Positions 7,950 through 58,752 of a stretch of 64,000 nucleotides of DNA are shown in pieces. Location of the stretch: contig JBDRPD010000039.1 in NCBI GenBank assembly GCA_043827405.1, positions 32,001 to 96,000 on the forward strand. Reading direction: 5' to 3'. Origin of the DNA: Elusimicrobiota bacterium. GTDB taxonomy: Bacteria > Elusimicrobiota > Elusimicrobia > UBA1565. A program made the position numbers and the translations under genes. Below the pieces are notes generated by a model. That model saw nothing but the letters and a program-made list of their open reading frames with translations. It was not told the DNA's origin and searched no databases. The first letter of the stretch is position 1. The number at the start of each line of letters is the position of its first letter.

Positions 7950-8016
7950 AGGGACAAATGGCGTCTCTCCGTTAGGCCTTTAGACCGTTCCCGATACCCT
8001 CCCGCTCTGTTATCCT
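7950..8016 (+). promoter_or_regulatory. Tandem GGNC-N4-GNCC boxes plus -10 (shared promoter, copy 1)
   Basis: GGAC-AAAT-GGCG at 7952, GGCC-TTTA-GACC at 7975, TG-T-TATCCT with hexamer at 8011, ATG at 8024. Confidence 0.7.
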
Positions 8017-8023
8017 GAGCTGG

Positions 8024-9286
8024 ATGCGAAAGCTCATCGCGCCTCTGTGTTCGGCGCTCATTGTTCTGTGTTCTCCCGGTTCCGCCGCCTGGTCGGCGGT
8101 CGCCGTCAAAACCGTCCCTGTCGGTCCCGTCGCCGCCGGTATCGGCGCCGCCGGCGCGGCCGTCCGCGCCGGTCTGCGGATGCCGGTCAGCGGCAGCTTG
8201 AATCTCGGCAGTACGCTGCCGGCCTTCCGTGCCGCTGCGCTTTTCAAGCCGCATCAAAGCCCGCAGGTCGGCGTCCTTCCTTCCGTCACCGTCCATAGCG
8301 TCAAGGATATCAAGACGCACGGGATTAAGGTTAAGACGGAAAAACGACGCAAGATCAAGAGTGTTATCTCCGGTTTAAAAGAAACCGCCCGCGTCCTGCG
8401 GGCCAAGGGCGGCAAGTCCAAGGCCGCCGGCGTTCTCAGCGCTTCGTTTGACGGCGAGTCCTACCTCGTCCCCTACGACGATAAGGGATTCGTCGATCTC
8501 GAACAGGAAAATCCCGAAGCCACGCCGGGCTTCAAGCCGACCGGCAGGCACGGCAACAACGGCAGCAGGAAGGCCGTCAAGAAATTAGCCAAGGACGTCG
8601 AGAAGCTGAAAGAATACCAGCAGCGCCTGTACGCGAGCGGTGAGCGGTCCGTGCTCCTGGTCTTCCAGGCCATGGACACCGGCGGCAAGGACGGCGCCAT
8701 CCGCTACGTGCTCGGCCCGCTCAACCCGCAGGGCGTGAAGGTCGCCAGCTTCAAGCAGCCGACCGCCGGGGAGAAGCGGCACAACTATCTGTGGCGCATC
8801 AGAAAAGCCCTGCCCGCGAAGGGCATGCTCGGCGTCTTCAACCGCTCGCATTACGAGGACATCCTGGTGCCGACCGTGGATGAGACCATGCCGGCGGCGG
8901 AAGTCGAGAAGCGCTACGCCGAGATACGCGATTTTGAAAAAGCCCTGGCCGACAGCGGGGTCGTCATCCTGAAGTTCTTCCTGAACATCTCCAAGGACGA
9001 GCAGAAGCGGCGCCTGCAGGCGCGGCTCGACGATCCGGACAAGCGCTGGAAGTTCAGCCCGAGCGATCTGACCAGCCGGGCGAAGTGGGGCCGCTACCTC
9101 GCAACCTACGGAAAAATTCTCGCCCGCACCAGTACGCCGTGGGCGCCCTGGTACGTCATCCCCGCCAACAATAAGTGGTTTCGCAACTTTCTGATCGGAC
9201 GCATCATCCGCCGGGCGCTCGACGCCATGGGCCTGCGCTATCCGGCGCCGCCGGCGGGGCTCGACCAGGTCGTTATCCCCGACTGA
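8024..9286 (+). CDS. ppk2: Polyphosphate kinase 2 family (class III-like) fused to a signal peptide and about 150-aa leader
   Basis: LLVFQAMDTGGKDG (Walker A), FNRSHYED, KFFLNISKDEQ, KRWKFS, APWYVIPANNKW. Confidence 0.92.
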   Translation: MRKLIAPLCSALIVLCSPGSAAWSAVAVKTVPVGPVAAGIGAAGAAVRAGLRMPVSGSLNLGSTLPAFRAAALFKPHQSPQVGVLPSVTVHSVKDIKTHGIKVKTEKRRKIKSVISGLKETARVLRAKGGKSKAAGVLSASFDGESYLVPYDDKGFVDLEQENPEATPGFKPTGRHGNNGSRKAVKKLAKDVEKLKEYQQRLYASGERSVLLVFQAMDTGGKDGAIRYVLGPLNPQGVKVASFKQPTAGEKRHNYLWRIRKALPAKGMLGVFNRSHYEDILVPTVDETMPAAEVEKRYAEIRDFEKALADSGVVILKFFLNISKDEQKRRLQARLDDPDKRWKFSPSDLTSRAKWGRYLATYGKILARTSTPWAPWYVIPANNKWFRNFLIGRIIRRALDAMGLRYPAPPAGLDQVVIPD

Positions 9287-10643
9287 CGCCGATGGCCGGC
9301 GGATGCTCCAGCAGCGCCGCCACGCGGCTGCGCCACATGAAGAACAGCGTTACCGCCACCACCCCGAGGCCGGTGAGCAGCCCGATCCAGAGCCCCGGCG
9401 GGCCCATCTCGGCGTGGAAGGCCAGCCAGTAGCCCAGCGGCAGGCCGAGGAGCAGGTGGCTGCAGACGGTGGCGTAGAGCGGCAGCCGCGTCTCGCCCAG
9501 GCCGCGCAGCGAGCCGGTCATGATCACCTGCGTCCCGTCGAAGATCTGGAAGACCGCCGCGATGCGCAGCAGCGGCGCGCCGACGGCGATGACCTCCGGG
9601 TCGGCGGTGAACAGGCGGATCAGCTGCTCCGGGATCAGCATATAGATCACGCCGGCGCCGGCCATGAAGGTGACGCCCAGCATGAGCGCGGTGTCTCCGG
9701 CCTGGACCGCGGCATGCGGGTCCTGGCGGCCCAGCCCTTGCCCCACCTGGACGGCGGCGGCGAGCGAGATGCCCAGCGGGATCATGAAGGTCAGGGCGGC
9801 GAAGTTCATGGTAATCTGATGGCCGGCGGTCGGCACCGGGCCGAAGCGCGCCATCAGCATGGTGACCATGGCGAAAAAGCTGACTTCGGCCATGAGGTGC
9901 AGACCGGCCGGCAGGCCGAGCTGGATGAGCTCGAGGAAGGTCCCGAGACTCCAGCTGCGAAACATATAGTCCGCGCGCAGCGCTTGGCGCAGCACCGCGG
10001 CCAGTCCGACGAGGAGCATGACGCATGCTGAGATGACGCTGGCGATCGCGCAGCCGCGCACGCCCATGGCGGGAAATCCCAGATGCCCGAAGACCAGGCA
10101 GTAATTGATGAAGACGTTGACCGTATTGCCGACGGCGATGGCGAACAGCAGCGGGCGGGTGATATTCATCGACTGCAGATAATGCCGGCAGCAGACGAAC
10201 AGCAGCGCCGGCAGGGCCAGCCAGCGGAAAATGGCGAGGTACTCCAGCGCGACGTCGGCGACGGTTTTATCGATGCCGACGAGCCAGTACAGGGGCTCCA
10301 CCGCGCCGAGCGCGGCGATGATGGGCGCTGAGATCAGCGCCGCCAGGACCATGGCATGGATGATGATCTCCGCGCACAGCCCGGTCTTGCCGGCGCCGAA
10401 AGCGCGCGACGCCAGAGTGTCGATCCCGAGCAGGAAGCCCAGGCCGAACAGGAAGACCATATGGAACGTCGCGCTCGCCACCCCGGCGCCGGCCAGGGCC
10501 GCGGCGCTCACGCGGCCGAGAAACAGCGTATCGACCAGGCCGTAGAGCATCATGCCGGCCTGGATGACCGCGATGGGTGCCGCCAACGACAGGACGGATT
10601 TGGTGACCGCCCGCGTCGGCAGCCTGAAGGTGCCGAGAATCAC
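9273..10643 (-). CDS. MATE family efflux transporter
   Basis: VDTLFLGRV, FGHLGFPAMGVRGCAIA, FQIFDGTQV..GSLRGLG; 12 TM; GTG start 8 nt after TAGAAT. Confidence 0.92.
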   Translation of the reverse strand: MILGTFRLPTRAVTKSVLSLAAPIAVIQAGMMLYGLVDTLFLGRVSAAALAGAGVASATFHMVFLFGLGFLLGIDTLASRAFGAGKTGLCAEIIIHAMVLAALISAPIIAALGAVEPLYWLVGIDKTVADVALEYLAIFRWLALPALLFVCCRHYLQSMNITRPLLFAIAVGNTVNVFINYCLVFGHLGFPAMGVRGCAIASVISACVMLLVGLAAVLRQALRADYMFRSWSLGTFLELIQLGLPAGLHLMAEVSFFAMVTMLMARFGPVPTAGHQITMNFAALTFMIPLGISLAAAVQVGQGLGRQDPHAAVQAGDTALMLGVTFMAGAGVIYMLIPEQLIRLFTADPEVIAVGAPLLRIAAVFQIFDGTQVIMTGSLRGLGETRLPLYATVCSHLLLGLPLGYWLAFHAEMGPPGLWIGLLTGLGVVAVTLFFMWRSRVAALLEHPPAIGVSRG

Positions 10644-10682
10644 GAGCAGTCATTCTAGCACATGCGCCGGGACGGGCCGCGG

Positions 10683-10898
10683 CTAGGGGTGGATGCCGTT
10701 GCGCTCCTTGTACCGGCGGATGCCTTCGCGGATACGGCTCTTGAGGGCATGCGGGGCGAGGCGTCCGCAGTCGCCGAGTCCCTCTACCGGCGCGCATAGG
10801 GAATAGCACCAAGGCGACAGGTTTTTGGTCAGCGGGCAGCCGAGATAGGTGTATTTCGGCAGGGGTTTCTTGCGGCGTTTCTTCACTATATTTGTCAT
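10683..10898 (-). CDS. Small basic Cys-containing hypothetical protein (71 aa)
   Basis: AGGAG SD before MTNIVKKRRKK; GCP..WC..LC..CGR..PH pattern. Confidence 0.65.
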   Translation of the reverse strand: MTNIVKKRRKKPLPKYTYLGCPLTKNLSPWCYSLCAPVEGLGDCGRLAPHALKSRIREGIRRYKERNGIHP

Positions 10899-10972
10899 GG
10901 CTCCTCTCCTGGGATTAGGATAGCCAAGCGAAATCAACGGATTCTCAACGGCGGATAAAATCCGGCTAAACT

Positions 10973-12145: not shown

Positions 12146-12230
12146 GGCGTTTCTCCTGCAGCGAGGATAGCACATTGCTCCCGATCATAATATAATGGGG
12201 CAACTGCAGCATCTTTGGAGAGGAGGAAGC

Positions 12231-12714: not shown

Positions 12715-12752
12715 GGCGGCGTCCCGTCGGGCGGGGGCGCCGCCGCTATTTT
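12715..12752. terminator. Probable intrinsic terminator between convergent genes
   Basis: GC-rich imperfect hairpin GGCGGCGTCCC...GGGGCGCCGCC followed by a short T run. Confidence 0.45.
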
Positions 12753-14443
12753 CGGCGGGCGAGAAAGCGGGCCGTCTCATGCAGCGCGATGACGGCGGCC
12801 AGCAGCGTTAGGTAGATGGCGTGAAACATCACGCCCGTGAGCCGGCGCTGCATCGAGGGCCGCCGCGCCCGGTCTTCCTCGGATGAGCGCTGCAGGGACG
12901 CGGCGACTTCCGGGTAGGGCGAGAAAATCATGTAGGGCTCGCGGTGCATGCTGTTGATGATGCCGATGGATATCGGCAGCGCGTACTGAAACAGGCCGAT
13001 GGGGTGCTGCGCCATGCCGGCCGCCTTCCAGCGCGCGTTGAGGCGCCGGGTGAAGTCTCCCAGGTGGAGCACGCTGCCGTTTTCGGAAATCGCCTGCAGG
13101 TCGAGGTCGCTGTCGGGTCCGGCGGCGCCGTTGACGAAGCTGCCCATGAGCAAGGCGCCGACGATGCGTTGGCCGCGCGGCAGCTCGCGGTTCATCTCCA
13201 GAATGGTGTCGCGTACGGCGGCGTCGAAGATGCCGAGGACCCGCTCCTGGTCATGCTTCTGGTAGTCCAGCAGCCGCTGGCGGGCGTCGTCGCCGGCCAG
13301 GCTGTCGAAGTAGGCGGGAAGCTCCTCGACGCTTAACGATGAGGCATGGAGCAGTCCCTTTTCCAGCAGCTTGCGAAACTGCGTGGCGCGGCGGTTGGGG
13401 TTGTAGGCCTGCGCCCGGGCGACCAGCCGCGCGAAGGCTTCGGTGCTCTCCCGGTCCTCCTGGAAATTGTTGTTGAAAAGCGCCCAGGCGTCGCCGACCA
13501 CGATACGGTTGGAGGTTACGCGCAGGCCGAAGGGGCCGAAGCGGCCGGTCGAACCCATGGTCAAATGCTGCAGGAAGAAGCGCAGGCGGAGATGGGGCTT
13601 GACCGCGAAATTCTTGCCCGGGTTCGCGTCGAACGGCTTCTTGTACTTGCGCCAGACGCTCACCGTGCGCGAAGTCACCCGCCAGTGAAAGGAGTTCAGG
13701 TATAGTCCCAGGTAGCCGAGCTTGTCCTTGATCCAGCGCCGCCCGGTGCGCTGCGGTATGTCGACTTCGCCGCGGTGCCGGGGATCGGGCTGCGGCTTCC
13801 AGTCGAAGCGCTCGACCTCCGGCTTGTCATCGGATTTCCTGCCGCCGATCAGCTCCTTGCCGAAGGAAAGCGCCGAGGACTTCCAGCCTTCCGGGGTGCC
13901 GAACCATTTATGGCCGCTGCGCCCGGCATGGACCGGGGAGGACGGCCGTTCGGCCCGCGCATTATCCCAGAGGTGCGCGGTCGTCTTGGTCAGCGACAGC
14001 TTGCGGAGAAAGCGCAGCGCGCCGGTTTTTTTCGCCGGCTCTTCCTGGGCCTCCCGGGCCTGCAGCTGCGAGCCGGGGAGCGCGGTCTTGACCGCAACGG
14101 CCTTGCCGCCGGTCTGGAGTTCCTGCTTTTGCCCCGTAATGTTCACGGTTTGAGGAGAGGTCTTCGCCTTATGAGAGATTTGTTCCGTCTGGGTGTTGAA
14201 GACGGGAAGGCTCGGCAGGACCGAGCCGAGAGACTGGGAATTTACGGTGCGGACCGAATTCGTCTTTAGCGCCGCTCCGCCACCTATGCCGCCGACAGCC
14301 GCGGCGCCGCCGACGGAAGCGGATACCTTTACCGGAGCGATGCGGACGGCGGCGTGAGCGGCCGGGGTTAATACGGGAATACAGGCAAGCAGGAAGGAGA
14401 GGGTGGAGCACGAGGTCCGTCTTAACAGACCACCTAGCTTCAT
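12746..14443 (-). CDS. Signal peptide and leader fused to an unknown central domain and a C-terminal Pol-beta-type nucleotidyltransferase domain
   Basis: LLMGSFVNGAAGPDSDLDLQA fits the hGS-x(n)-DhD NTase motif; C-terminal hydrophobic helix. Confidence 0.75.
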   Translation of the reverse strand: MKLGGLLRRTSCSTLSFLLACIPVLTPAAHAAVRIAPVKVSASVGGAAAVGGIGGGAALKTNSVRTVNSQSLGSVLPSLPVFNTQTEQISHKAKTSPQTVNITGQKQELQTGGKAVAVKTALPGSQLQAREAQEEPAKKTGALRFLRKLSLTKTTAHLWDNARAERPSSPVHAGRSGHKWFGTPEGWKSSALSFGKELIGGRKSDDKPEVERFDWKPQPDPRHRGEVDIPQRTGRRWIKDKLGYLGLYLNSFHWRVTSRTVSVWRKYKKPFDANPGKNFAVKPHLRLRFFLQHLTMGSTGRFGPFGLRVTSNRIVVGDAWALFNNNFQEDRESTEAFARLVARAQAYNPNRRATQFRKLLEKGLLHASSLSVEELPAYFDSLAGDDARQRLLDYQKHDQERVLGIFDAAVRDTILEMNRELPRGQRIVGALLMGSFVNGAAGPDSDLDLQAISENGSVLHLGDFTRRLNARWKAAGMAQHPIGLFQYALPISIGIINSMHREPYMIFSPYPEVAASLQRSSEEDRARRPSMQRRLTGVMFHAIYLTLLAAVIALHETARFLARRK

Positions 14444-14449: not shown

Positions 14450-14516
14450 AGTATATGAGAAAAATCAAAAAATCTGTTGGGTCGTACGTCCTATTTATGC
14501 GCCGTCATTCGGCCCA
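14450..14516 (-). promoter_or_regulatory. Tandem GGNC-N4-GNCC boxes plus -10 (shared promoter, copy 2)
   Basis: Minus strand GGCC-GAAT-GACG from 14514, GGAC-GTAC-GACC from 14491, TATACT from 14455, ATG at 14443. Confidence 0.7.
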
Positions 14517-14581
14517 TCCGAAACCCTGTTAAATTGCGCCGTAATATCCAATAATGGATAGGCGGCAATGGAGGAGGATAA

Positions 14582-15841
14582 GTGGCGGACGACAAGATCG
14601 ACCGAATAGAAGCGGAGCTGAGCGCCATGAAGGTGCTGGCCGAGCTGACCGCGCGCATTAACGCCGGCCACACCCTCGATGAGGTCCTGGATCACGTCTA
14701 CGATTCCTTCCGGCGCCTCATCCCGTACGACCGGATCGGCGTCGCGCTGCTGATCGACGACGGCACCGTGCTGCGCGCCCGCTGGGCGCGCGCGGAAACG
14801 CAGGCCATCCGGCTCAAGCAGGGCTTTTCCGCGCCGATGCTGGGCAGCAGCCTGCAGCATATCATCGACACGGGCATGCCGCGCATCCTCAACGATTTGG
14901 AGGCCTACCTGCGGGAGCACCCCGAGTCGTCATCCACCCGGCTGATCGTTGCGGAGGGCATCCGCTCCAGCCTGACCTGCCCGTTGGTCGTCGCCGGCGC
15001 GCCTATCGGCTTCATCTTCTTCAGCAGCACGGAGCGTGATACGTACCGGAACGCCCATGTGGTGTTCTTTCAGCAGCTGGCGGGCCAGCTCGCGATGGCG
15101 GTCGAGCGGGGGCAGCTCTTTCAGGAGCTCGTCGAGCTCGGCCGGCTCAAGGACAAATTCCTCGGCATCGCGGCGCATGACCTGCGTCATCCCCTGACCG
15201 TGATTATGGGCTATGCCGAAATGATCCAGCAGGACGTTCTGGGCGATGACCGGGCCGCCCGCGACGACGCGCTGGGAAAGATCACCGACGCCGCCAAGAT
15301 GATGAACCGCGTCCTCGAAGAGCTGCTCGATGTCAGCACCATCCAGTCGGGACATCTTTCCCTCGATCCGCGGCCTATCGACAGCGGCGAGTTCCTGCGC
15401 CGGACCGTCGCCAAGTACGCCATGCTGGGGAAAAAGAAGTCGATCGCCGTCTCCTGCGCCGCGGCCGACGACCTGCCGGGTATCTGCGCCGACCCGGAGC
15501 GCATCGACCAGGTGCTCAGCAACCTGATATCGAACGCGGTGAAGTTCTCTCATCCCAATACCCAGGTGAAGGTGACCGGTGAGCGCAAGAGCGGCGAAGT
15601 CCGGATATCGGTGCGGGACCAAGGCCAGGGAATTCCCGCGGACGCGCTGCCGCAGCTTTTCGAGGAGTTCGGCGCCGTCGGGGTCAAGCCCACCGCCGGG
15701 GAAAAGAGCACCGGTTTGGGGCTGGCCATTGTCAAAAAGATCGTCCGCGCGCACGGCGGGCGCATCTGGGCGGAAAGCACGCCGGGCAAAGGCTCGGCCT
15801 TTACCTTTGTTCTCCCGCTCGACGCGTCGCTTAGCTCTTGA
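14582..15841 (+). CDS. GAF-domain sensor histidine kinase (soluble, orphan)
   Basis: GAF region; AAHDLRHPLT H-box, NLISNAVKF N-box, DQGQGI, GTG start with GGAGGAGG SD, TGLGLAIVK. Confidence 0.93.
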   Translation: MADDKIDRIEAELSAMKVLAELTARINAGHTLDEVLDHVYDSFRRLIPYDRIGVALLIDDGTVLRARWARAETQAIRLKQGFSAPMLGSSLQHIIDTGMPRILNDLEAYLREHPESSSTRLIVAEGIRSSLTCPLVVAGAPIGFIFFSSTERDTYRNAHVVFFQQLAGQLAMAVERGQLFQELVELGRLKDKFLGIAAHDLRHPLTVIMGYAEMIQQDVLGDDRAARDDALGKITDAAKMMNRVLEELLDVSTIQSGHLSLDPRPIDSGEFLRRTVAKYAMLGKKKSIAVSCAAADDLPGICADPERIDQVLSNLISNAVKFSHPNTQVKVTGERKSGEVRISVRDQGQGIPADALPQLFEEFGAVGVKPTAGEKSTGLGLAIVKKIVRAHGGRIWAESTPGKGSAFTFVLPLDASLSS

Positions 15842-24891: not shown

Positions 24892-25398
24892 ATGCTGATA
24901 CGAGAGGAAGAAAAAAAGGATTGGACCCGCATCCATGCCCTTAATGCCGCGGCATTCGAAACGCCGGCCGAGGCCGATCTGGTAGACGCCTTGCGCAAAA
25001 GCGTGCAGCCGTACGTTTCGCTGGTCGCCGAGGAAGAGAAAAAAATCCTGGGGCATATCATGTTCACTCCGGTCTCTCTGTCCGGCCATCCCGACCTTAA
25101 GGTCATGGGCCTCGCGCCGATGGCCGTCGCGCCGGAACGCCAACGCCGGGGCATCGGCGCCAAGCTTGTGCGCGCCGGGCTCGAAAGGTGCGGGCAGCTG
25201 GGCTTCGGCGCCGTTGTCGTCTTGGGACATCCGGAGTATTATCCGCGCTTCGGCTTCACCGCGTCCGCGCGCTTCGGCATCGGCTGCGAGTTCGACGTGC
25301 CGGCGGACGTGTTTATGGTTATGGAGCTGCAGTCCGGCTACCTGCGCGAAAGATCCGGCACCATCAAGTACCACGCGGAATTCGGCAGGCTTTCCTAG
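24892..25398 (+). CDS. GNAT N-acetyltransferase (YhbS-like)
   Basis: GHIMF, LAPMAVAPERQRRGIG, VLGHPEYYPRFGF. Confidence 0.92.
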   Translation: MLIREEEKKDWTRIHALNAAAFETPAEADLVDALRKSVQPYVSLVAEEEKKILGHIMFTPVSLSGHPDLKVMGLAPMAVAPERQRRGIGAKLVRAGLERCGQLGFGAVVVLGHPEYYPRFGFTASARFGIGCEFDVPADVFMVMELQSGYLRERSGTIKYHAEFGRLS

Positions 25399-28277
25399 GC
25401 TTTCGGTGCGGCCTTTTTCGAATCCTTCTCGCGCTCGCCGTTCTCCCATCCCTCGGGGTTGATCTTCTTGAGCCAGCGGGGGGCCAGCCATTCGAGGAGC
25501 GAGGTCAGGCTGATCCCGGTTGCGATGATGGCGATCGCCGCCTGGATCGGGACGATGTCGATGAGGATACCGATGAGCAGCGCGCCCAGCGCCATCAGGC
25601 CGACGTCGACCATGGTGAAAGCGGCGCTTACCTTGCCCACCATGTGGTTGGGAATCTGCTTGCGCCGTACCGGCGCCATGGCGATGCCCAGCGGGGTGGC
25701 GAGCATCGAGAGCATGAACTCAAAGAGCAGCAGCACCGCCATGGAGCCCGCAAACAGCGGGATCGACATGCCGGCGGCCGGGGCCGCGAAGAAAGTCGGG
25801 ATGAGCATGGCCCAGAAGGTCAGGCCGCTGATCGCGGCGGCGCGATAGAGCGCCCCGTGGCCCCACTTCTTGATGCGCTGGGCGCCCTTGGGACCGCTCG
25901 CCCAGCGTGAGCCGAGGTAGCGGCCGACCGCGCCCGCCGTGAGCATGAGCCCCATAATGCCTACCGGCGTGGTGAGCATGGAGCCGATGACCGGGACCGC
26001 GGCCAGCGCCGCCGTCGGCTTGATCACGTCGATGATGTAGTTGGGGATCACGACGAACATCAAGGCGTCCGCGATGAAGAGCTCGATGGCGGTGATCGCC
26101 ACCAGCAGCGAGAGCGTGTCCGAGCGCAGGATTACCGAGACGCCCTGGGTCGCTTCGATCTTGTCGAAGAAGCGCGCCATCTTCTCGCGCAGGTTCCAGC
26201 CCTTCTCCTTGAAAGGCACCTCACGCTCCTGCGCTTCTTTCAGGACCTCGGCATGCTCGGGGCTTACTTCATGCTGGCGTGACTTGAGCTTGGAGATCAG
26301 CCAGCGAACGCCGATATAGGGCAGCTTGAGGACGGTCCACAGCGGCATAAGGATATTGAGCGGGTTCTTCGACGGCTTCTGTTTGACGCTGGGATCGAAG
26401 TAGCGCGGGTCGCGCACCATCAGGATGAAGATCGGGATCGAGAGCAGCAGCATCAGGGCGTAGCCGGCATAAGCCGCGGCGTAGCCGCCCGGGCTGCCGA
26501 AGGCCACGACCAGCTGGCTGACGACCCAGGCCGCGGCGGCCGGGATCACCAGGCCGCTGACGGCCGAGACCTTGGTCCCGAAGGCGGTGCCCTCGCGGAC
26601 CACGTTCTCGTCGCGGCCGAGGAAGCTGTCGCGGGAGGCGGTGTCGGAGTTCGTCATGAGGCTCTGGAACATCGGGTTGAGGGCGACGATGCCGATCAGC
26701 ACCGCGAAAGTCATATAGCCGCTGAAGAAGAGCACCGGAATCAGTCCCATCAGGAGCGCCCGTGCGACCGAGGTCCAGATGAACATGGTCTTGAAATCCG
26801 TCTTGTCGATGGCCGGTCCGATGGGGAGGAAGCTCGAGGCGCTGTAGGCGCCGAAATGGACATTGCGGATCACGCCCATCATGGTCTTGCTGCCGGTGAG
26901 GCCGTAGACCAGGTAGGGCTGGGCCGAGATGTGCATGTAGATGCCGAACATGATGAAGACCGTATGGCCGAGGACGAGCCCCTTGAGCGAGCGGGGGATC
27001 TCGATCTTCCCGGGCAGGAAGGGCATGCCCTCTTCGATGCTCTTGTCGTAGAGGGGTTCCATGACTTCGCTGATCACGTAGCCGAGCCGGGTTCCGAAAT
27101 CGCGGTTGCCAACGCTGGGGCCGTCGGCGAGCAGTTCCTTCATCTTCGCCGCGGGTTCGCCGTCGCGGCCTTCCAGGGAGGCGTAAAGTCCTGCCATGAA
27201 GCGCTGATCACGGGCCCGCATCTTCTTGCGCAGGCCGAACTTGAAGCGGTCGCCCAAAGACGGCGCCGGCATGATGAGCTGCTTGCCCGGCCGCCAGGCC
27301 GCTCCGGTCAGGTAGCCCTGGACATAGTCCGCATCCTGCAGGTTCTCGCGCAGGGCGGGATGGTTCGTATCCATCCCGGCGAGCGATTCGGCGAGCGCGG
27401 TGTTGATCTGTTCGTCGGAGGCCTGTTCGGTCCGGGCGAGGAACTGCTGGCCGGTCGCTTCGTCCCGGTGCAGCTCGGCGATGCGGTAGGCCAGGCCCTT
27501 GATGAACTTCGCCCGCTCTCTGCCCGCGGGCAGCTCGAGCGCGGTTCCCTGCTGATAGACGCTCGCCGCTACATAGCCCGCTTTGAAATAGCCTTCATGA
27601 AGGTCGAAAAGGAGGTGTTCCTGCTCTTTGGCCGCTTTGGGGGTCTGGGGTCTTGCCGGCTCGGTCTTGGCGCGGCCCTGGACCGCTGAACTGCGGCGGA
27701 GCAGGCGGTTTTTTAGTGAGGCGAAAACGCCGCTTTTGACGGAGACGGGCGCTGCGTCCTCCGACTTCGCCGCTTCAACCGTGAAGTCGGCGTCCTTTTT
27801 GATCTCGCTGCTGGAGAGGTTCGCGATGCCGGCGGTGAGCTTGCCTGACGTTTTTGCGATCGCGGAAAGCCGCGCTTTGAGCGCAGGGGCGGCGCTCTTC
27901 TTCGCCTCTGCAGTAGCGGCGGCGGCCCCGCTGCCGGTGTCGGTCTTGATCGACTGGACGGTGCCGGCGGCGCCGACCTGCAGCTGCTTGGTTCCGACTC
28001 CCTGGGAAATCGGGAGCGCAACGGACGGCAGGACGGAGATGAGCGGCGCCTTGCCGACGCTGTTTAGGGAAATGCCGGAGAAGTCTCCGCCCGGTATGCG
28101 GGAGACGCCGCCCGCGGTGCCGGCGGCATTGGATCCGGGGGCGACGGCCTTGACCGGCGCCTTGAAGACCATGGCGGCGGCTTCATAGGCTCCCGTGCCG
28201 GGAGCGGCGATAACAAGGGATGTCGCGAGAATGGCGGCGATTGCTTGGCGGCGCGGGGAAGTCGTTCTCTTATTCAT
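25395..28277 (-). CDS. Signal peptide, leader and soluble domain fused to an MFS-like transporter
   Basis: About 430 aa soluble N-terminal part, then two bundles of TM helices; IPNHMVGKVSA resembles DHA3/MFS_3 C-terminal loops. Confidence 0.72.
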   Translation of the reverse strand: MNKRTTSPRRQAIAAILATSLVIAAPGTGAYEAAAMVFKAPVKAVAPGSNAAGTAGGVSRIPGGDFSGISLNSVGKAPLISVLPSVALPISQGVGTKQLQVGAAGTVQSIKTDTGSGAAAATAEAKKSAAPALKARLSAIAKTSGKLTAGIANLSSSEIKKDADFTVEAAKSEDAAPVSVKSGVFASLKNRLLRRSSAVQGRAKTEPARPQTPKAAKEQEHLLFDLHEGYFKAGYVAASVYQQGTALELPAGRERAKFIKGLAYRIAELHRDEATGQQFLARTEQASDEQINTALAESLAGMDTNHPALRENLQDADYVQGYLTGAAWRPGKQLIMPAPSLGDRFKFGLRKKMRARDQRFMAGLYASLEGRDGEPAAKMKELLADGPSVGNRDFGTRLGYVISEVMEPLYDKSIEEGMPFLPGKIEIPRSLKGLVLGHTVFIMFGIYMHISAQPYLVYGLTGSKTMMGVIRNVHFGAYSASSFLPIGPAIDKTDFKTMFIWTSVARALLMGLIPVLFFSGYMTFAVLIGIVALNPMFQSLMTNSDTASRDSFLGRDENVVREGTAFGTKVSAVSGLVIPAAAAWVVSQLVVAFGSPGGYAAAYAGYALMLLLSIPIFILMVRDPRYFDPSVKQKPSKNPLNILMPLWTVLKLPYIGVRWLISKLKSRQHEVSPEHAEVLKEAQEREVPFKEKGWNLREKMARFFDKIEATQGVSVILRSDTLSLLVAITAIELFIADALMFVVIPNYIIDVIKPTAALAAVPVIGSMLTTPVGIMGLMLTAGAVGRYLGSRWASGPKGAQRIKKWGHGALYRAAAISGLTFWAMLIPTFFAAPAAGMSIPLFAGSMAVLLLFEFMLSMLATPLGIAMAPVRRKQIPNHMVGKVSAAFTMVDVGLMALGALLIGILIDIVPIQAAIAIIATGISLTSLLEWLAPRWLKKINPEGWENGEREKDSKKAAPKA

Positions 28278-28285: not shown

Positions 28286-28351
28286 AGTCTAAAGGAACAG
28301 GACATTAGGCGGCAGGGTCTCCCGGGGAAGTAATAAACGGAAGAGGACCTA
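28286..28351 (-). promoter_or_regulatory. Degenerate copy of the shared promoter (copy 3)
   Basis: Minus strand TAGGTC (GGTC from 28349), cccc-GGGA-GACC from 28327, TAGACT from 28291, ATG at 28277; only half-sites match. Confidence 0.45.
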
Positions 28352-28377
28352 GGCCTTTTTGGGCCCTCGAGGGGGGG

Positions 28378-29106: not shown

Positions 29107-30567
29107 GTGAAAACACGCGGCCGGACGGCGGCACTTCTGCTTTTGATCTTACTATTAAAGGTGCTGCTGTTTGCTCCCTTCCTGCAGGAGCCGCTGGAGC
29201 GCGACGAGGGAGCCTACGGCTACGCCGCTCAGGTGCTGCTCGACGGCGGGGTGCCCTATCGGGATTCGTTTGACCATAAGCCGCCGCTGGTCTACTTCAT
29301 CTACGCGGTGATCGTAAAAATCGCCGGACCAACACTGACGGGCGTCCGCTTGTTCACGCTCGGCTGGGGGCTGCTGGCTGTGTTGGCCGTCGGCGGTGCC
29401 GGCTGGCTGCTGTGGGGGAGGGGGGCCGGTCTGGCGGCCGCCTTTTTGTACGCGCTGTTTTCCGGCGGGCCGCTGATCTACGGGACCTCGGCCAATACCG
29501 AGACCTTCATGGTACTGCCGCTGCTCCTGGCCCTGCTGTGCTTTATCTGCCAGCAGCGGGACCTGCGGCCCAACGGCGCCGCGGTGCCCTGGCTGTTTCT
29601 CGCCGGATTGTTCTCGGGGCTGGCGGTAATGCTCAAGCAGACCGCGGTCTTCAATATGCTGGTCTTCCTGCCCTTTCTTCTGCGCGGGCGGCGTGGTCTG
29701 GCGCGGCGCCTGCTGCAGCTGGCGGCCGGCGCCGCGGTCGTACCGCTGCTGCTGGCCGCCTACTTCGCGGTCCGGGGCGCCTGGTCCGATTTCTTCTACT
29801 GCACCGTCCTCGTCAATAAGAAATATCTCGCGACCGTTCCCGGTGGTTTTTGGACGCGCTTATCCGAGGGGCTGGCGATCACGTTCAATATCGCCCTGCT
29901 GGAGAATGCCTGGCTGTGGATATTCAGCCTGCTGGCGCTCGGCTTGATTATGCGGCGCGACCGCCGCCGGGAGAATATCCTAGTCGTGCTCTGGGGCTTC
30001 GCCTCGCTGCTCGCGGTGACGCTTTCAGGACTATTTTTGGGACACTACTATATCCAGGTCATCCCGGCGCTTTGCCTGCTGTCGGCCTACGGCATCGTGG
30101 AGTTCAAACAGCGTGCCGATCTCTACAAAAAGGCGGCGCTCATCTTTCTGTGCCATATCCCGCTGATTTACGTGCTGCCCTTCCAGACGCCGTTCTATCT
30201 TAAGTACTCGCCGGAGCGCATCTCCGAGCTCAAGTACAAGAGCCGGCGCTTCGCCGTATCTCGGCGTTTGGCGCAGGAGCTGCAAGGCATCCTCAAGCCG
30301 GAGGATACGATCTTCGTCTGGGCGGCGAACCCCGAACTCTATTTTTATTTGGCCAAGAGAGCGCCGACGCGCTACTTTACCTATCTCCCCTGGATGCATG
30401 AGCCGGCGATCCTCGACGGCATCATTTCCGACGTGACCGCCGCCCGCCCTGACTACTTCATCTGGACCGACTACGGGCTCAAGAGCGAGCGGCTGAGCGC
30501 GCTCATCGAGAAGGAATACCGTTTCTTCCTAGCCATCGACAGCTGGAAAGTTTTCAAGCGGCGGTAG
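29107..30567 (+). CDS. ArnT/PMT-like GT-C membrane glycosyltransferase
   Basis: RDEGAY, PYRDSFDHKPP, ANTE, LKQ, HYYIQ; polytopic; GTG start 6 nt after TATACT. Confidence 0.88.
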   Translation: MKTRGRTAALLLLILLLKVLLFAPFLQEPLERDEGAYGYAAQVLLDGGVPYRDSFDHKPPLVYFIYAVIVKIAGPTLTGVRLFTLGWGLLAVLAVGGAGWLLWGRGAGLAAAFLYALFSGGPLIYGTSANTETFMVLPLLLALLCFICQQRDLRPNGAAVPWLFLAGLFSGLAVMLKQTAVFNMLVFLPFLLRGRRGLARRLLQLAAGAAVVPLLLAAYFAVRGAWSDFFYCTVLVNKKYLATVPGGFWTRLSEGLAITFNIALLENAWLWIFSLLALGLIMRRDRRRENILVVLWGFASLLAVTLSGLFLGHYYIQVIPALCLLSAYGIVEFKQRADLYKKAALIFLCHIPLIYVLPFQTPFYLKYSPERISELKYKSRRFAVSRRLAQELQGILKPEDTIFVWAANPELYFYLAKRAPTRYFTYLPWMHEPAILDGIISDVTAARPDYFIWTDYGLKSERLSALIEKEYRFFLAIDSWKVFKRR

Positions 30568-32899
30568 GCGGGGCGGGCTGCCGCTCCCGCAGGACGGTGA
30601 GTTCCCTAAGCAGTGCGGCCTTCTCTTCTTTCCAGGTTTTTTCCTTGGCCTGCAGGGTTTGTTCAAGGCGCTGCCGCAGCTCCGCGGCCTGAGTTTTCAG
30701 CTCGCGTTCCTTTTTCTCCTGGGCTTCGCGCAGGCCGCTCAGGTCCTGCAGCAGTTCGGCTCGGCGCCGTTCCCAAGCCGCCTCATTGTCGCGCAGAGCG
30801 TTCTCTGCTGCGGACCGCTTCGCCTGCAGTTGTCCTTTAAACAGCAGCTCCTTGCGCTGCGCTTCGCGTTTCTCGCCCTGCAGCGCTTCGTCCGCCCGGA
30901 CCAGGCGCGCTTCGAGTTCGCGCGCCTTCCGCGCCCAGTGCGCCGGCGTGAGGTCGGTTCGTTCTCTGTCCCAGCGGCGCTGGCGCAGCTCGGCGGCTTC
31001 ATGCAGGTCCTTTATTTCTTTGCGCAGGCCCGTCAGTTCCTGTTCTCCGGCCTGGCGCATGTTCTCCAACGCGCGCGCCAGGCTTTGCCGCAGTTCTTCG
31101 GCCTCCTCGGCCCAGGCGGCCTGCCGGATTTTAAAATCGTCCGCCTGTATCCGCAGCCGGTTGGAAGCTCGCTGCTCGGCGGTCTGTGCCGCCTCCAGCC
31201 GCTGCAGGTGCTCTTGTGTTTTTTGTTCCTGCTGAGCGGCATTTTCGCGCAGCTCTGCGATTTGCTCGCGCAGGCCGGCCTTCTCCTGCTCCCAGATTTC
31301 CGCCGCCCGCGCATGTTCATTCACGCGCTCTTCCAGCGCCGCGCGTTCCGCCTCAATAAGCCGCTGCTGGGTCTGCTGCGCCTGTTCGTCTCTCTCGTCC
31401 GCGGCGTCGCGCAGCGTGTCGATCTGCCGCAGCAGGCTGGATTTCTCCCGCTCCCAAAGTTCCCGTGCGCGCTCAAGAGCGTCGTCGATCCCCTGCTTCG
31501 CGTCCTGTTCCGTCTGCTGCGCCTGCTTGTCTCTCTCAGCGGCGGTGTCGCGCAGCTCGTTGATCCGTTTCTCGAGCTGCGCCTTATCCTGCGCCCACTG
31601 CTCCGCCGCTCGCGCCTGCGCTGCGACGCGCTCCTCCAGCGCGGCGCTTTGGGCGTTCTGCGCCTGCTTGCCGCGCTCGATTAGTTCCGTGCGCTGAGCT
31701 TCGAGTTCCTGTTGGGCGGACTGCTCGGCGTCGCGGAGGCTTTGCCGCAGGTCCTCGACTTCCGCGGCAAGGAGCGCCCGCCGCTCCTGAAAATCGTCTT
31801 CCAGCAGCCGAATCTTATGCCGCGCGCGCTGCTCGGATGCCTGCGCTTCCTCCAGGTTTTGCTCGAGTTCGCGGATGGCCCGGCCCCGTTCGGCCGCCTT
31901 TCCGCGCAGTTCATCGAGCTCTTCTCGCAGGCCGGCCTGCTCCTCCGTCCGCCTGGCGGTGAGCTGTTTCTGCGCGGCGGCCTCGGAACGCTCCGCTTCA
32001 GCCAGGCGCCGCTGCAGGTCCTGGACGTCCCGGGTCCAGGCGGCCTGCCGTTCCGTGAAATCGTCCTGCTGCCGTTGGGATATGCTGTGCATCTGCCGCT
32101 CAGCGGCCTGCACGCCTTCCAGCCTCTCTTCGAGGTCCCGTACGGCCTTGCCTCGCTCCGCGGCTTCGGCGCGCAATTCGTCGAACTGCCGCTGCAGCGT
32201 TTCCTTCTCCTGCCGCCAGCGGGCCTCCTCCTCCTCATGCGCGGCGGCGCGATCGCGCAGCGCGCCCTTCGCCTTTTCATCGCGCTGTGCGGCCTGCTCT
32301 GTCAGCGTCGCGATTTCCTCCTGCAGGCGCGCTTCTTCCTTCTCTGCGCGGGCAAGCGCCCGCTCATGCGCGGCGGCGCGCTTGTCTAGTGCGGCCCGCT
32401 CCGCCGCCAATAGCTGCTGCTGCGCCGCAAGCGCATCCGCATTCGCCGTCGTTTCCTGCTGGTGCGTCTCGGCGATTCGGCGCAGGGCCTCGTCTTTTTC
32501 CCGTACTACCGCTTCCGTTTGCTCGCGCAGCTCTTTGAGATCGCGCTCCCAGCGCATCTCCAGCTCCGCGCGGAATTTCTCGTACTGCGCCTTCTGCTCG
32601 TCCAAGCCGCGCTCTTTGAGCGCCAGGCGCTCATCCGCCTGCGCGCAGGCTTCAGCCGCCCGCTGTTCCAGTTCGGCAACCTGCTGCGCGCTCTCTTTGC
32701 TCAGCGCTTCGTATTTTTCGACGGCGTCCTGGCCGTGCCGCATCTCCTTCTTCAGCAGAGCCTGGATGTCTTCGTTGGCTTTCTCCAGAGCCTGCTGACG
32801 CTGCAGCGTCCAGCGCAGCGCGATGCGCGCCGTATCGAGATCGGGGATGATGTCGATATCGGAGAACTCGATCTTGCGCCCCTTGGGGGTATCTTCCAT
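30554..32899 (-). CDS. Long coiled-coil protein with internal repeats
   Basis: About 780 aa, rich in E/Q/R/A/L, no TM or signal peptide; probable start MEDTPK. Confidence 0.8.
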   Translation of the reverse strand: MEDTPKGRKIEFSDIDIIPDLDTARIALRWTLQRQQALEKANEDIQALLKKEMRHGQDAVEKYEALSKESAQQVAELEQRAAEACAQADERLALKERGLDEQKAQYEKFRAELEMRWERDLKELREQTEAVVREKDEALRRIAETHQQETTANADALAAQQQLLAAERAALDKRAAAHERALARAEKEEARLQEEIATLTEQAAQRDEKAKGALRDRAAAHEEEEARWRQEKETLQRQFDELRAEAAERGKAVRDLEERLEGVQAAERQMHSISQRQQDDFTERQAAWTRDVQDLQRRLAEAERSEAAAQKQLTARRTEEQAGLREELDELRGKAAERGRAIRELEQNLEEAQASEQRARHKIRLLEDDFQERRALLAAEVEDLRQSLRDAEQSAQQELEAQRTELIERGKQAQNAQSAALEERVAAQARAAEQWAQDKAQLEKRINELRDTAAERDKQAQQTEQDAKQGIDDALERARELWEREKSSLLRQIDTLRDAADERDEQAQQTQQRLIEAERAALEERVNEHARAAEIWEQEKAGLREQIAELRENAAQQEQKTQEHLQRLEAAQTAEQRASNRLRIQADDFKIRQAAWAEEAEELRQSLARALENMRQAGEQELTGLRKEIKDLHEAAELRQRRWDRERTDLTPAHWARKARELEARLVRADEALQGEKREAQRKELLFKGQLQAKRSAAENALRDNEAAWERRRAELLQDLSGLREAQEKKERELKTQAAELRQRLEQTLQAKEKTWKEEKAALLRELTVLRERQPAPPTAA

Positions 32900-32955
32900 A
32901 TGCGAATTACATAGCAACTGTATGTTAAATTTTCGCGTCAGGGCGCGCAGGAGGG

Positions 32956-46574: not shown

Positions 46575-48335
46575 CTAGGAAGAGCCGGTCGGGGCTTTCG
46601 CCTCGGCCGGCTCTGCTTTGCCGCTGTCTTTGTAGCGCTTGACCGCGCGCAGGGTCAGAAAGTACAGCGGGACCGCCAAGGCCGCGCCGAGGATCAGGCC
46701 GCCGAGCATGGCCGTGCCGAAAACCTGCAGCCCCACGTCCAGAAGCGCATTGATCCCCGCGATCAGCCCTTCATTCGCCGCGCCGAGCAGGCCGGCCAGG
46801 GCTTCGGAGGCCGCCGGGGCCGCGGGGTTGAACCAGCTGCCGATGGTGTATTCCAGCCAGTAGAAGGGCGCCAGCGTCAGCGGGTTGGTGATCCAGATCA
46901 TGCTCATCGCGGCCGCGGTGCTCGCGCGCAGCGGCTTGCTGAGCGCCAGGATCATCAGCCACTGCAGGCCCACGGTCGGCGTCATGGCGATGAGGATTCC
47001 CAGCGCCACCCCGCGCGCGATGGTCCGCGCGGAAGTTTCATGCAGCAGCGCGTTCTTGAGCGCGTTGCGCCAGGTGTCGCGGACGCGCGTCCAGCTCCAG
47101 ATGCGGGCGCGCTTGGGGGTCTTGAGAGTCTTCTTGCCGGCCTCGAAGCCGACTTCAGCCAGGATTTCCAGCAGGGCTTTGCGGACCCGGCGGTCGAATC
47201 CGGCGGCCTCCTGCGACATGATCGACAGGGCTTTCTCGATCGACATCCCCTCGCGGTAGGGGCGGTTCTCCATCAAGGCGTCGAAGACGTCGGCGACGGC
47301 TACGATGCGCCCCCATTTGCTTATCTGCCGTCCGCGCTTGCCGAACGGATAGCCTGAGCCGTCCAGGCGCTCGTGATGCTCGAGCGCGACTCTCGCCGCC
47401 AGCTTGCGCAAATCCTTCGGCAGGTGGGAGAGCTCGGACAGCATCTGGGAACCGATCAGCGAATGACGCTTGATGGTCGCGAACTCCTCGTCGTTGAGCT
47501 TGCCGGGCTTGTTGATCGTCTCCGTGATCACCGGTTCCGTCTTGCCGAAATCGTGGTAGGTCGCGGCCCAGGCCAGGCGCTCGGCGAACAGCGGCGTGAC
47601 GCCCATCTTGAGCGCTATCAGCCCGCTCAGCAGGCCGACGCGCAGGGAGTGCCGGCCGGTGCCGGCGTCCCGGGTTTCAATGCGCTTGATCATCGCGTTC
47701 TTGAGCTGGATGCGGCGCCGGTCATGGTCATCGCGAGCATCCAGGCCGCGGTTTGCCAGGAGATTCCAGGAGCGCGATAGCACGCTCTCATAGCGCTCGT
47801 CCTTGATATTGTCGCGGCCGTAGATCGAGGGCTCGTACCAGGAATGGGCCAAGGCGGCTAAAGGGCTCGCGGCGTTTTGTGCGCCGTCAAAAAAGGCGTT
47901 GAGCTCCGCGGATTCCGGCAGCGCGCCGTTCTTCTTGCTAAGGCGAGTCTCGGCGGTCTGGCGGACTGAGCGTCCCTGTCCCGCCGCCCCGGGTACAGGG
48001 GATGCGGTGACGGGCTTGACCTTCGCCGCGCTGTTTCGGGCATGAGCGGGAAGTACCTGCGGCGTTTCGATAACTTGGGTAGGGGCAAAGCGCGGTTTAA
48101 GATCGGGGCTCTGGTTGGGAAGCGGCAGGTTCTCGAGGACGGGGAGAAGCAAGGTGCTGCCGAAGGTCAGCGCCTTCAGCGTGCTGTGCTTGTGCGCGCC
48201 GGAGGCCGCGCCGGCCGCCGCCGCGGCGCCGCCGCTTACGGGCGCCTGCACAACCGGCAATTTCCCGATATTCGCGAAGGCCGGGACGTTGAGCGCGAAG
48301 ATCAGCGTCAGCGCTACGATCCGCGATTTCATCAT
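46575..48335 (-). CDS. Signal peptide and leader fused to an HD-GYP phosphodiesterase domain and a C-terminal DUF2062-like membrane domain
   Basis: HSLRV, HDFGK, HHERLDGSGYP, VADVFDAL..RPY; IARGVALG, WITNPLT. Confidence 0.88.
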   Translation of the reverse strand: MMKSRIVALTLIFALNVPAFANIGKLPVVQAPVSGGAAAAAGAASGAHKHSTLKALTFGSTLLLPVLENLPLPNQSPDLKPRFAPTQVIETPQVLPAHARNSAAKVKPVTASPVPGAAGQGRSVRQTAETRLSKKNGALPESAELNAFFDGAQNAASPLAALAHSWYEPSIYGRDNIKDERYESVLSRSWNLLANRGLDARDDHDRRRIQLKNAMIKRIETRDAGTGRHSLRVGLLSGLIALKMGVTPLFAERLAWAATYHDFGKTEPVITETINKPGKLNDEEFATIKRHSLIGSQMLSELSHLPKDLRKLAARVALEHHERLDGSGYPFGKRGRQISKWGRIVAVADVFDALMENRPYREGMSIEKALSIMSQEAAGFDRRVRKALLEILAEVGFEAGKKTLKTPKRARIWSWTRVRDTWRNALKNALLHETSARTIARGVALGILIAMTPTVGLQWLMILALSKPLRASTAAAMSMIWITNPLTLAPFYWLEYTIGSWFNPAAPAASEALAGLLGAANEGLIAGINALLDVGLQVFGTAMLGGLILGAALAVPLYFLTLRAVKRYKDSGKAEPAEAKAPTGSS

Positions 48336-48341: not shown

Positions 48342-48407
48342 AAGATAGATGGATTGGGGGGATAATGGTTGGGGTATATGTCCCAGACGGCGGGGCCGAT
48401 GGGCCTG
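48342..48407 (-). promoter_or_regulatory. Tandem GGNC-N4-GNCC boxes plus -10 (shared promoter, copy 4)
   Basis: Minus strand GGCC-CATC-GGCC from 48405, GGAC-ATAT-ACCC from 48383, TATCTT from 48347, ATG at 48335. Confidence 0.68.
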
Positions 48408-55171: not shown

Positions 55172-55229
55172 GGCCTGCTCCGTCGGAGTGATTTATACGT
55201 ACAGCATATAGAGTTTCGCGCGGGGGTGT

Positions 55230-56096: not shown

Positions 56097-56175
56097 GACG
56101 GGAGTATGGTACCTATTCTTCGGCGGCGTTTCTCCATGCTCGCCAGGAGGTGCCAGGTATGATAATCGCGGCCGA

Positions 56176-57663: not shown

Positions 57664-57757
57664 TACTGCACCTAAAGTCAGTGTAGCTATTTGGTAGGGT
57701 GGTTGTTGTATTGTGAGCAGATGAGAGCGCGTGACCAACGGCAGCCAAAAGTGTTGA

Positions 57758-58624
57758 ATGTCATCTGAACAGCAGTTGGAGAGTTTGCGCAGCTTTGCTG
57801 CGCCATTCTCAGTCCGGCGCCAATTGCGCCGGCTGGCTGAGCGCCCGCTTGACGCGGGCGGGACTTTGCGCTTCGCGGTGATAGGCGACTGCGAGCCTGG
57901 ACGATTTTGGCTCAGTCGAGCGATGTTCGGCGCGCCGGGGGTCTTCCCTCGGCTCATGGATCTTATTGCGGATGACGGCGTGGAATTCGTCGTTCAGCTT
58001 GGAGATATGGTCAGCCGCGGCACTTTGCCCAACTACGCGCGGCTCTTCGCAACCCTCGCGGAGTTCAACCAGCGAATCCCGTTTCTTCCAGTGCCCGGCA
58101 ATCATGAGCGCAGGTCGCCGCATTTTCGGTCGGATTCGAGCCTTTTTCGCGCTTTCTTCGGGAAGAGCAATTATGCGTTCGACTGCGGCCCGGCGAGGTT
58201 TATCGTCCTGGACACCAGCGACCGGCGGCTGACCCAGCTTCAGCTTTCATGGTTGGATAGGGCGCTGCGTACCCCGCTGAAGAAGCTGGTTTTTTCGCAT
58301 TTTCCGCCCACCTGTATTCGGGAATGGACGTCCATGTTTCGGATCCCGACTTCGGCGTGCTTCCGCAAGGGAGCCGAGGCTTTCGCAAGGCTCGTATCCG
58401 AACGGAGCGTCGACCGAGTGTATGTGGGGCATATCCACGCCCTGGCATGTACGAGGCACCGGGGTGTGCAGTACGTCCTTTCCGGAGGAGGCGGTTCCCC
58501 GCTCTATCCTTGGCCAGCGGGTGAAAGGAGCCATCACTATCTGCTGGTCAGCGTTAATGAGCTGGGCATTAGCGAGGAAGTCCGATACCTCGGTGGAAGG
58601 TCTAGATCGCTGGATGTCTCATAG
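57758..58624 (+). CDS. Calcineurin-like metallophosphoesterase
   Basis: VIGD, LGDMV, PGNHE, FSH, GHIH, SGGGG. Confidence 0.88.
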   Translation: MSSEQQLESLRSFAAPFSVRRQLRRLAERPLDAGGTLRFAVIGDCEPGRFWLSRAMFGAPGVFPRLMDLIADDGVEFVVQLGDMVSRGTLPNYARLFATLAEFNQRIPFLPVPGNHERRSPHFRSDSSLFRAFFGKSNYAFDCGPARFIVLDTSDRRLTQLQLSWLDRALRTPLKKLVFSHFPPTCIREWTSMFRIPTSACFRKGAEAFARLVSERSVDRVYVGHIHALACTRHRGVQYVLSGGGGSPLYPWPAGERSHHYLLVSVNELGISEEVRYLGGRSRSLDVS

Positions 58625-58684
58625 CTCGCTGGGGCGCCATCCTTGGGACGCAGCATGCGGATCGCCCTCTCCAGTTTGCCCGCA

Positions 58685-58752
58685 TAGGTCTTTAGTCCCA
58701 GAAAACGGTGGGACTTTTTCACCTTTCGCTTTCCCCCAATAGCCCACATACT
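58685..58752 (+). promoter_or_regulatory. Tandem GGNC-N4-GNCC boxes plus -10 (shared promoter, copy 5)
   Basis: GGTC-TTTA-GTCC at 58687, GGAC-TTTT-TCAC at 58711, CATACT at 58747, ATG at 58759. Confidence 0.68.

Follow-up and report, generated by a model that had tools for sequence, protein, structure and literature searches.

Regulatory systems close to the one described here are known from other bacteria. In the box of DevR (DosR) of Mycobacterium tuberculosis, positions G3, G4, G5, C7, and W9 are critical, and tandem primary and secondary sites are located at -63.5 and -42.5 (PMC3177182). DosR reads its site with residues K179, K182, and N183, and contacts region 4 of sigma from a box near -43.5 (PMC13486717). 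In Pseudomonas aeruginosa, PprB is a NarL/LuxR-family activator encoded inside the Tad (Flp) locus; it controls surface and secreted proteins and also switches on the tad locus in which it lies, accounting for 13 of its 35 regulon genes (PMC3510237). Phosphorylated DegU of Bacillus subtilis controls about 170 genes, including those for degradative enzymes (PMC9263151). Tad-like systems (Kil) mediate contact killing in Myxococcus, and their KilC has been described as uniquely short (PMC8460266). In this study we analyzed a promoter element made of tandem palindromic boxes in front of a -10 hexamer, found in a stretch of 64,000 nucleotides (nt) from an Elusimicrobiota bacterium (GenBank assembly GCA_043827405.1, contig JBDRPD010000039.1, positions 32,001 to 96,000; hereafter the window). 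Elusimicrobia are widespread and mostly uncultured. Literature searches on Elusimicrobia regulons, NarL, Tad/pili, and predation, made at abstract level and with most subscription journals outside their coverage, found no publication on the element and no regulon described for Elusimicrobia.

The promoter element in the window and in the source genome

A sequence-only reading of the window had proposed that five genes share two precisely spaced palindromes (boxes A and B) upstream of a -10 hexamer. All five sites were located as claimed. At each of them the -10 lies 36 nt after the start of box B, the spacing between boxes A and B is 23, 23, 22, 24, and 22 bp, a further TAGGCC lies at 7927, and TTG is absent from the -35 slot at all five, in agreement with the proposed lack of a canonical -35. 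The seven genes named as motif-free in the same reading score from -0.8 to -20.5, vs. 19-31 for the five sites, under the model described below. The palindrome is better read as 16 bp, and a third box (C) is often present. The promoters and their genes are as follows (window coordinates, strand, description).

7927..8016, +, promoter of the 8024 gene: half box C 7927-7942 (TAGGCC at 7927), box A 7950-7965, box B 7973-7988, -10 TATCCT 8011-8016, 7 nt to ATG; score 28.1
8024..9286, +, gene for a 420-aa PPK2-domain protein: predicted signal peptide, leader, and PPK2 domain
14450..14516, -, promoter of the 14443 gene: box A 14501-14516, box B 14478-14493, -10 TATACT 14450-14455, 6 nt to ATG; score 30.8
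12746..14443, -, gene for a 565-aa protein: predicted signal peptide, leader, and a domain without Pfam match
14478..14545, +, weak divergent promoter candidate: the two boxes of the 14443 promoter with a poor -10, CGTAAT 14540-14545; score 19.0, below the cut-off, putative
14582..15841, +, gene for a GAF-HisKA-HATPase histidine kinase, divergent from 14443
28286..28375, -, promoter of the 28277 gene, half-sites: box C 28360-28375, A 28336-28351, B 28314-28329, -10 TAGACT 28286-28291, 8 nt to ATG; score 19.4
25395..28277, -, gene for a 960-aa MFS-like transporter: predicted signal peptide and leader
48342..48407, -, promoter of the 48335 gene: box A 48392-48407, box B 48370-48385, -10 TATCTT 48342-48347, 6 nt to ATG; score 23.8
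46575..48335, -, gene for a 586-aa protein with HD domain and DUF2062: predicted signal peptide and leader
58685..58752, +, promoter of the 58759 gene: box A 58685-58700, box B 58709-58724, -10 CATACT 58747-58752, 6 nt to ATG; score 22.1
58759..59613, +, gene for a predicted 284-aa lipoprotein with DUF882/peptidase M15: outside the leader set defined below, carries an FDG motif

The leaders of the 8024, 14443, 28277, and 48335 products are Ala/Gly-rich, and each follows a predicted signal peptide. The 14443 product is 27% like another regulon protein with a nucleotidyltransferase match. The kinase gene at 14582..15841 is a possible regulon member.

The window belongs to contig C39 of the source genome (G000; 4.33 Mb, 98% complete), whose proteins have their closest named relatives mostly among sequences labelled Elusimicrobia. 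Genes were called in this genome with its own dicodon model (3485 genes), and a model of three boxes plus -10 was fitted on the genome with C39 held out, at a score cut-off of 20. After overlapping matches were merged and matches without a start within 120 nt were dropped, 126 raw matches gave 107 promoters. On the held-out contig, the five window sites (19.4-30.8) and the divergent site at 14540 were the six top window scores with a usable -10; the 28277 promoter falls slightly below the cut-off. Because the model was fitted on the source genome, which favours the real count, the held-out contig and the other genomes carry more weight than that count.

Several comparisons indicate that the element is more than chance. 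In a count that required no training (539 genes with TANNNT 5-8 nt before ATG), the word GGHC peaked at -59, -82, and -36 from the -10 (27, 25, and 23 genes vs. a mean of 10.8), and TTG peaked apart from it, at the -35 slot. The trained model gave 126 matches vs. none in the reversed genome and 0, 0, and 3 in local shuffles. With five other box periods it gave 1-6 matches (one with a period of 19-21), and when the -10 was moved by 4-12 nt it gave 10-24, or 58 and 36 when moved by 2 nt. The regulon is almost certainly real.

The consensus box is the 16-bp palindrome TRGGHC-N4-GDCCYA with an A/T centre, present in two or three copies with a period of 22-24 bp. Among the 107 promoters, box A has the strongest half-site on its left side (T 82%, G 95%, G 95%, C 98%), box C is weaker than A and B, and a fourth upstream box has no information content. 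In 78 of the 107, the distance from the start of box B to the -10 is 36 nt. With the -10 set at -12 to -7, from which the transcription start is inferred, the box centres lie near -42.5, -65.5, and -89. The -10 hexamer is of the sigma70 type, and the nearest box abuts the -35 slot, where TTG was found in none of 51 motif promoters vs. 86 of 488 others. The dimeric class II activator with tandem sites that had been proposed fits both the position of box B relative to this inferred start and the missing TTG. The first start codon lies 3-9 nt past the -10 in 69 of the 107 promoters, only one of which has a Shine-Dalgarno-like word; such a word is found in 15 of 35 promoters with longer gaps. The short gaps together with the near absence of Shine-Dalgarno-like words suggest that transcripts of the short-gap promoters are leaderless.

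Targets and conservation

To define the leader family, a hidden Markov model (HMM) was seeded with the four window proteins only, without use of the DNA motif. It identified 46 genes in the source genome, of which 32 carry the promoter element, an odds ratio of about 100; another four have scores of 17-19, below the cut-off. The proposed overlap between leader and promoter therefore holds with an independent HMM; its exclusivity to leader-bearing proteins does not, since 75 of the 107 promoters precede genes outside the leader set. These are mostly other proteins with a predicted signal peptide. By a rough rule, a signal peptide is predicted for 85 of 107 targets vs. 1075 of 3378 other genes, and, among genes of the leaderless type, for 40 of 51 motif genes vs. 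158 of 488 others. This enrichment indicates that the regulon covers the predicted exported set broadly, beyond the leader family.

Pfam domains were searched in 80 of the 103 targets outside the window, a biased sample, since the 23 others are mostly short or low-ranked (one exceeded the size limit) and comprise many of the non-exported targets. Matches were obtained for 43 of the 80 and none for 37. The matched targets include 17 peptidases, seven transporters or channels, three amylases, three nucleases, three nucleotide enzymes, two peptidoglycan hydrolases, two lipid enzymes, two TPR proteins, and one each of a ClpB-type ATPase, a glycogen synthase, a metallo-hydrolase, and a PilZ protein. 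Separate, motif-free genome copies were identified for adenylate kinase, Clp ATPase, RNase R, glycogen synthase, oligopeptidase, uridine kinase, HtrA, and PPK2, the last as a two-domain protein on contig C87. For the Lon, MscS, and S41 queries no separate motif-free copy was detected in the source genome at E 1e-8.

Some further features of the targets were observed. A (F/W/Y)D(G/N/Q) motif, often FDGA, ends the low-complexity leader at residues of about 135-200 (in the window in the 8024, 14443, 48335, and 58759 products), and is found in 40 of 90 regulon proteins with a signal peptide vs. 153 of 982 others. In several shorter regulon proteins, the signal peptide is followed by another motif, NFDQG. 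Three regulon proteins are giants of 5435, 4027, and 3018 aa (G000:C22:34435-50739, C99:25743-37823, and C22:51962-61015), the last two without Pfam match. Two high-scoring promoters stand back to back at G000:C31:17787(-) and 17972(+), one of which drives a 186-aa PilZ-domain protein; this target hints at a link to cyclic di-GMP. Boxes are also carried or shared by a few signalling genes (single receiver, receiver-kinase, and GAF kinase; G000:C3:36807, C94:13086, loci L093 and L190, and window 14582-15841), which may form feedback loops.

The element was found to be conserved in related genomes. Of 24 orthologues of the 8024 gene (three families, 34-62% identity), 18 have the motif upstream with a score of at least 11; among the other six, one leaves no room for the element, three lack a leader-length frame, and two score 8 and -10. 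All five other PPK2 paralogues score from -16 to +1. For scale, 62 of 3308 non-site genes reach a score of 10 anywhere in 350 nt. A strict two-half-site pattern was more frequent than the reversed control in almost every genome of the order and in some genomes of the class, and showed no enrichment over this control in other classes. It missed family f5 and genus g25, which were recovered with a box-B pattern. The motif is kept in AT-rich small genomes: at 20 loci picked by eye in the small-genome family f4, 23 of 26 matches face an exported-looking gene. A scan of GTDB species gave at least 122 stretches with the pattern. Among the matches listed, 80 stretch titles comprise 57 Elusimicrobi- names, 15 unnamed bacteria, and eight other taxa. 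Of 123 matches, 97 lie before a predicted signal peptide, 17 lie before none, and nine lack a frame; in this call a positive start was preferred where one was nearby. In these scans the element is found across most of the class Elusimicrobia.

A few matches fall under other names. Those of L127, L152, and L173, two of them titled Pedobacter and Spirochaetales, precede TetR-like genes outside Elusimicrobia, and may represent chance or a convergent operator. L090 and L143 are short contigs placed under other phyla with the full motif before Elusimicrobia-like exported proteins, and are possibly mis-binned; L090 resembles L102.

Two other observations concern the window outside the regulon. A pelF-like gene (DUF3492 glycosyltransferase) and pelG, of a Pel exopolysaccharide cluster, lie at 1286-4176, and a 780-aa coiled-coil protein without Pfam match is encoded at 30554-32917.

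The candidate regulator and competing explanations

The candidate regulator is a NarL-family response regulator (G000:C83:142341-143042) with paralogues on contigs C51 and C35; the source genome has six GerE-type genes, three of which are these paralogous NarL-family regulators. Aligned to DosR, the C51 copy keeps K179, T180, K182, N183, N167, K168, R197, and T198; Y184 of DosR is His in the candidate. The K-T-x-K-N helix is present in all three paralogues and was kept in 32 of 32 copies examined, and orthologues are 65-79% identical among the matches listed. In 18-bp numbering, the strongest half-site positions of the element are G3 (69%), G4 (77%), G5 (88%), C7 (91%), and A/T9 (90%), in register with the Dev box of DosR.

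The distribution of the regulator follows that of the motif. At E 1e-30, among 301 genomes of the phylum, it was detected in families f1 (3/3), f2 (27/27), f3 (1/1), f4 (88/88), f5 (22/22), f7 (3/3, at about 50% identity), f8 (4/4), and f11 (1/1); it was weak or missing in f6, f9, f10, and f12, and absent from all 89 genomes of f14. Box B plus -10 was counted in 80 hand-chosen genomes, the kin among which are not independent: 49 genomes with a close orthologue of the regulator gave 245 matches vs. 36 controls, with an excess in 40 of them, and 28 genomes without one gave 10 vs. 32 (2 vs. 4 in 11 class members, 8 vs. 28 in 17 genomes of other classes). In f7 the count was 3 vs. 3. The regulator is the only GerE-type gene in two genomes, G303 and G153, and G303 has 26 matches.

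The conserved regulator copy ends an operon that encodes two Flp-like pilins, TadE, CpaB, a 263-aa secretin, a MinD-like/CpaF fusion, TadB, TadC, a TPR protein, a dCache-HAMP kinase, and a receiver-kinase hybrid; the kinases beside the regulator have dCache-HAMP-HisKA and REC-HisKA architectures. The order of Tad, kinase, and regulator genes was kept in five of seven fetched stretches; in G153 only the hybrid kinase lies beside the regulator, and the G244 stretch has neither kinase. The secretin was found in 146 of 149 genomes of the regulator-bearing families and in none of 11 other class members, and, judged by eye, secretin and regulator are about 12-17 kb apart on one contig in more than 50 genomes found in both tables. 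In a search for named secretin relatives outside Elusimicrobia, the matches listed were all close relatives. None of 25 proteins scanned from the Tad loci gave an FHA match, and the ATPase has a MinD/ParA-like domain instead. No box scoring 14 or more was detected in five Tad stretches scanned, and the Tad operon promoter of the source genome is canonical (TTGACG-17-TAGACT). The missing box and the canonical promoter suggest that sensor and regulator would be made constantly, and their targets on demand. An OmpR-type regulator in the Tad operon (L216:11809-12582, G000:C83:137808) gave a weak, partial receiver match only.

Based on these data, the following mechanism can be proposed. Phosphorylated dimers of the regulator would occupy the upstream box and, by cooperativity, also the box near -42.5, where the regulator would stand in for the missing -35 and recruit holoenzyme as DosR does. 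More than 100 promoters, mostly of predicted exported proteins, would be switched on by the regulator as a class II activator, and about two thirds of the regulon transcripts would be leaderless. The phosphate might be supplied by the dCache-HAMP kinase and the receiver-kinase hybrid, whose genes lie directly upstream in the Tad (Flp) operon, a weaker part of the proposal. The regulon could represent a response to contact with surfaces or cells, in which hydrolases, transporters, and additional copies of cytoplasmic enzymes are deployed; a role in contact feeding is a tentative suggestion. Equally speculative is the extension to most of the class as contact feeders (predators or epibionts), in which Tad would sense a partner and a kinase relay would act through the master regulator on more than 100 operons that form a digestion kit, with ATP-dependent enzymes and transporters, carrying signal peptides and the shared leader, delivered into or onto that partner. 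Cultured Elusimicrobium species grow without prey, and for this reason obligate predation across the whole class is unlikely.

It is probable that the Tad-linked NarL-family regulator binds the boxes, but several points weigh against this assignment. No box precedes the three paralogues of the source genome or its Tad operon. The K-T-x-K-N helix is unspecific: it is also found in Listeria DegU, and in regulators of f7 and other classes without motif enrichment. The box period is 23 bp vs. 21 for DosR, and position 6 is C/T, not A. NarL-family regulators usually have HisKA_3 partners, and the adjacent kinases are of the HisKA type. The co-occurrence of motif and regulator lies within kin and is common to every gene of the Tad operon, and nine of the 49 regulator-bearing genomes show no motif excess. 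The DNA-binding screen of small genomes covered seven families, and an XRE-type match of about 250 aa in G272 and G082 may be a further candidate.

With the same regulator, the output could be an envelope stress response like that of LiaR/VraR or a dormancy response like that of DosR. The best full-length PDB matches of the regulator are VraR, then DosR, and HtrA-, Lon-, ClpB-, and MscS-type domains occur among the targets. However, none of the 80 scanned targets matches the Psp, Bam, Lpt, Tol, or universal-stress families, and no dormancy targets such as hspX were found among them. The protease and chaperone domains follow predicted signal peptides and leaders, and adenylate kinase, HtrA, and PPK2, among others, have the motif-free copies listed above. 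A stress or dormancy output is considered unlikely.

It is rather improbable that the boxes are read by another class-specific protein (of an unknown family, the second NarL-type gene of the small genomes, or an XRE type), the Tad-linked regulator being merely co-inherited. The helix match at family level only, the incomplete family screen, and the gene sets shared by kin would all allow it. In the second NarL-type gene of f4, however, the helix differs (SLNTVHVH), and G303 and G153 lack this gene; the half-site matches the Dev box in register, and the OmpR-type gene of the operon is missing from motif-bearing f4 genomes.

Individual candidates for the binder were rejected on their own grounds. 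The OmpR-type gene is missing from G272 and G082; Fis and Crp types are missing or below the cut-off in the same two motif-bearing genomes. LexA was not found in G082 (98% complete), no box was seen by eye before the two lexA genes of the source genome, and no SOS gene was recognised among the genome-wide matches. For an alternative sigma factor as reader, three palindromes at a 23-bp period misfit sigma recognition. A second group-1/2-like sigma factor is conserved (G000:C10:11840-12868, 342 aa, with similar-sized counterparts in small-genome relatives) and could be used at motif promoters. Autoregulation was dropped as proof of the binder, given the box-free paralogues and Tad operon. Among the 32 regulator copies examined, one (in G318) has a box upstream: this paralogue, at L081 (G318:C23), carries a strong array scoring 36. 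At L306 (G261:C15) Asn replaces the first base-reading Lys of the regulator, and this one genome has no pattern matches, a possible natural change of specificity.

The bound protein very probably activates rather than represses. That it is a repressor, with promoters firing on its release, would agree with box B abutting the -35 slot, and repressed promoters can also have tandem operators. The absence of TTG from the -35 slot, the fixed position of box B in 78 of 107 promoters, and the results on SOS genes and LexA argue against this, and a repressor is considered highly improbable. Finally, the element could be taken for a repeat or the remnant of a mobile element, or for an artefact of high GC content, since GGCC is common at 63% GC and the model was fitted on the source genome. 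This reading is refuted by the untrained count, the conservation before PPK2 orthologues and not paralogues, and null matches of only 0-6. In addition, the boxes are shared and the spacers are not, and the motif is kept in AT-rich small genomes.

With the Tad-linked regulator as its probable reader, the element points to a candidate master switch for the class, for which a regulator can be named and a motif, a sensor module, and a set of targets are described. Genomes can also be mined with the motif for exported proteins, 37 of the 80 scanned being without Pfam match, and the connection of a Tad pilus operon with a secretome rich in hydrolases makes the question of lifestyle experimentally tractable. 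New here are the list of targets across the genome, a specific candidate whose distribution matches, and the tie of the regulon to a Tad module.

Comparison with described systems

As in the Kil systems of Myxococcus, Bdellovibrio, and Bradymonadales, a Tad apparatus with a short secretin (263 aa here) is found in a genome rich in secreted hydrolases. The FHA-fused ATPase or FHA accessory signature of Kil, however, was not found in the 25 proteins scanned. The Kil paper makes no mention of Elusimicrobi or two-component (PMC8460266).

DegU of Bacillus and Listeria offers the closest DNA-binding domain in PDB, with an identical KTVKNH helix in Listeria DegU. The DegU system is Gram-positive, and the likeness is one of protein sequence. 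We know of no Tad link for DegU.

Like PprA-PprB, the system described here has a NarL-family regulator and a kinase inside the tad locus. Unlike PprA-PprB, it shows, at the level of sequence, no box in the five Tad stretches scanned, its targets are mostly hydrolases and proteins of unknown function, and its module has two kinases.

The closest parallel is DosR. DosS and DosT, its kinases, are GAF-haem kinases, unlike the neighbouring dCache-HAMP-HisKA and REC-HisKA kinases found here. Both regulators are of the NarL family with the same base-reading residues, and the half-site G3, G4, G5, C7, and W9 is conserved (PMC3177182). Also common to both are arrays of at least two tandem boxes, in which the upstream site is the stronger and the proximal box lies near -42.5/-43.5, and divergent genes that share boxes. 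The differences are the period (22-24 bp here vs. 21), position 6 (C/T) and position 2 (T) of the site, targets that are predicted exported proteins and not dormancy proteins, the number of promoters (more than 100), and the phylum. Taken together, the Elusimicrobia regulon appears to work like a DosR-type class II regulon and not to be a member of it.

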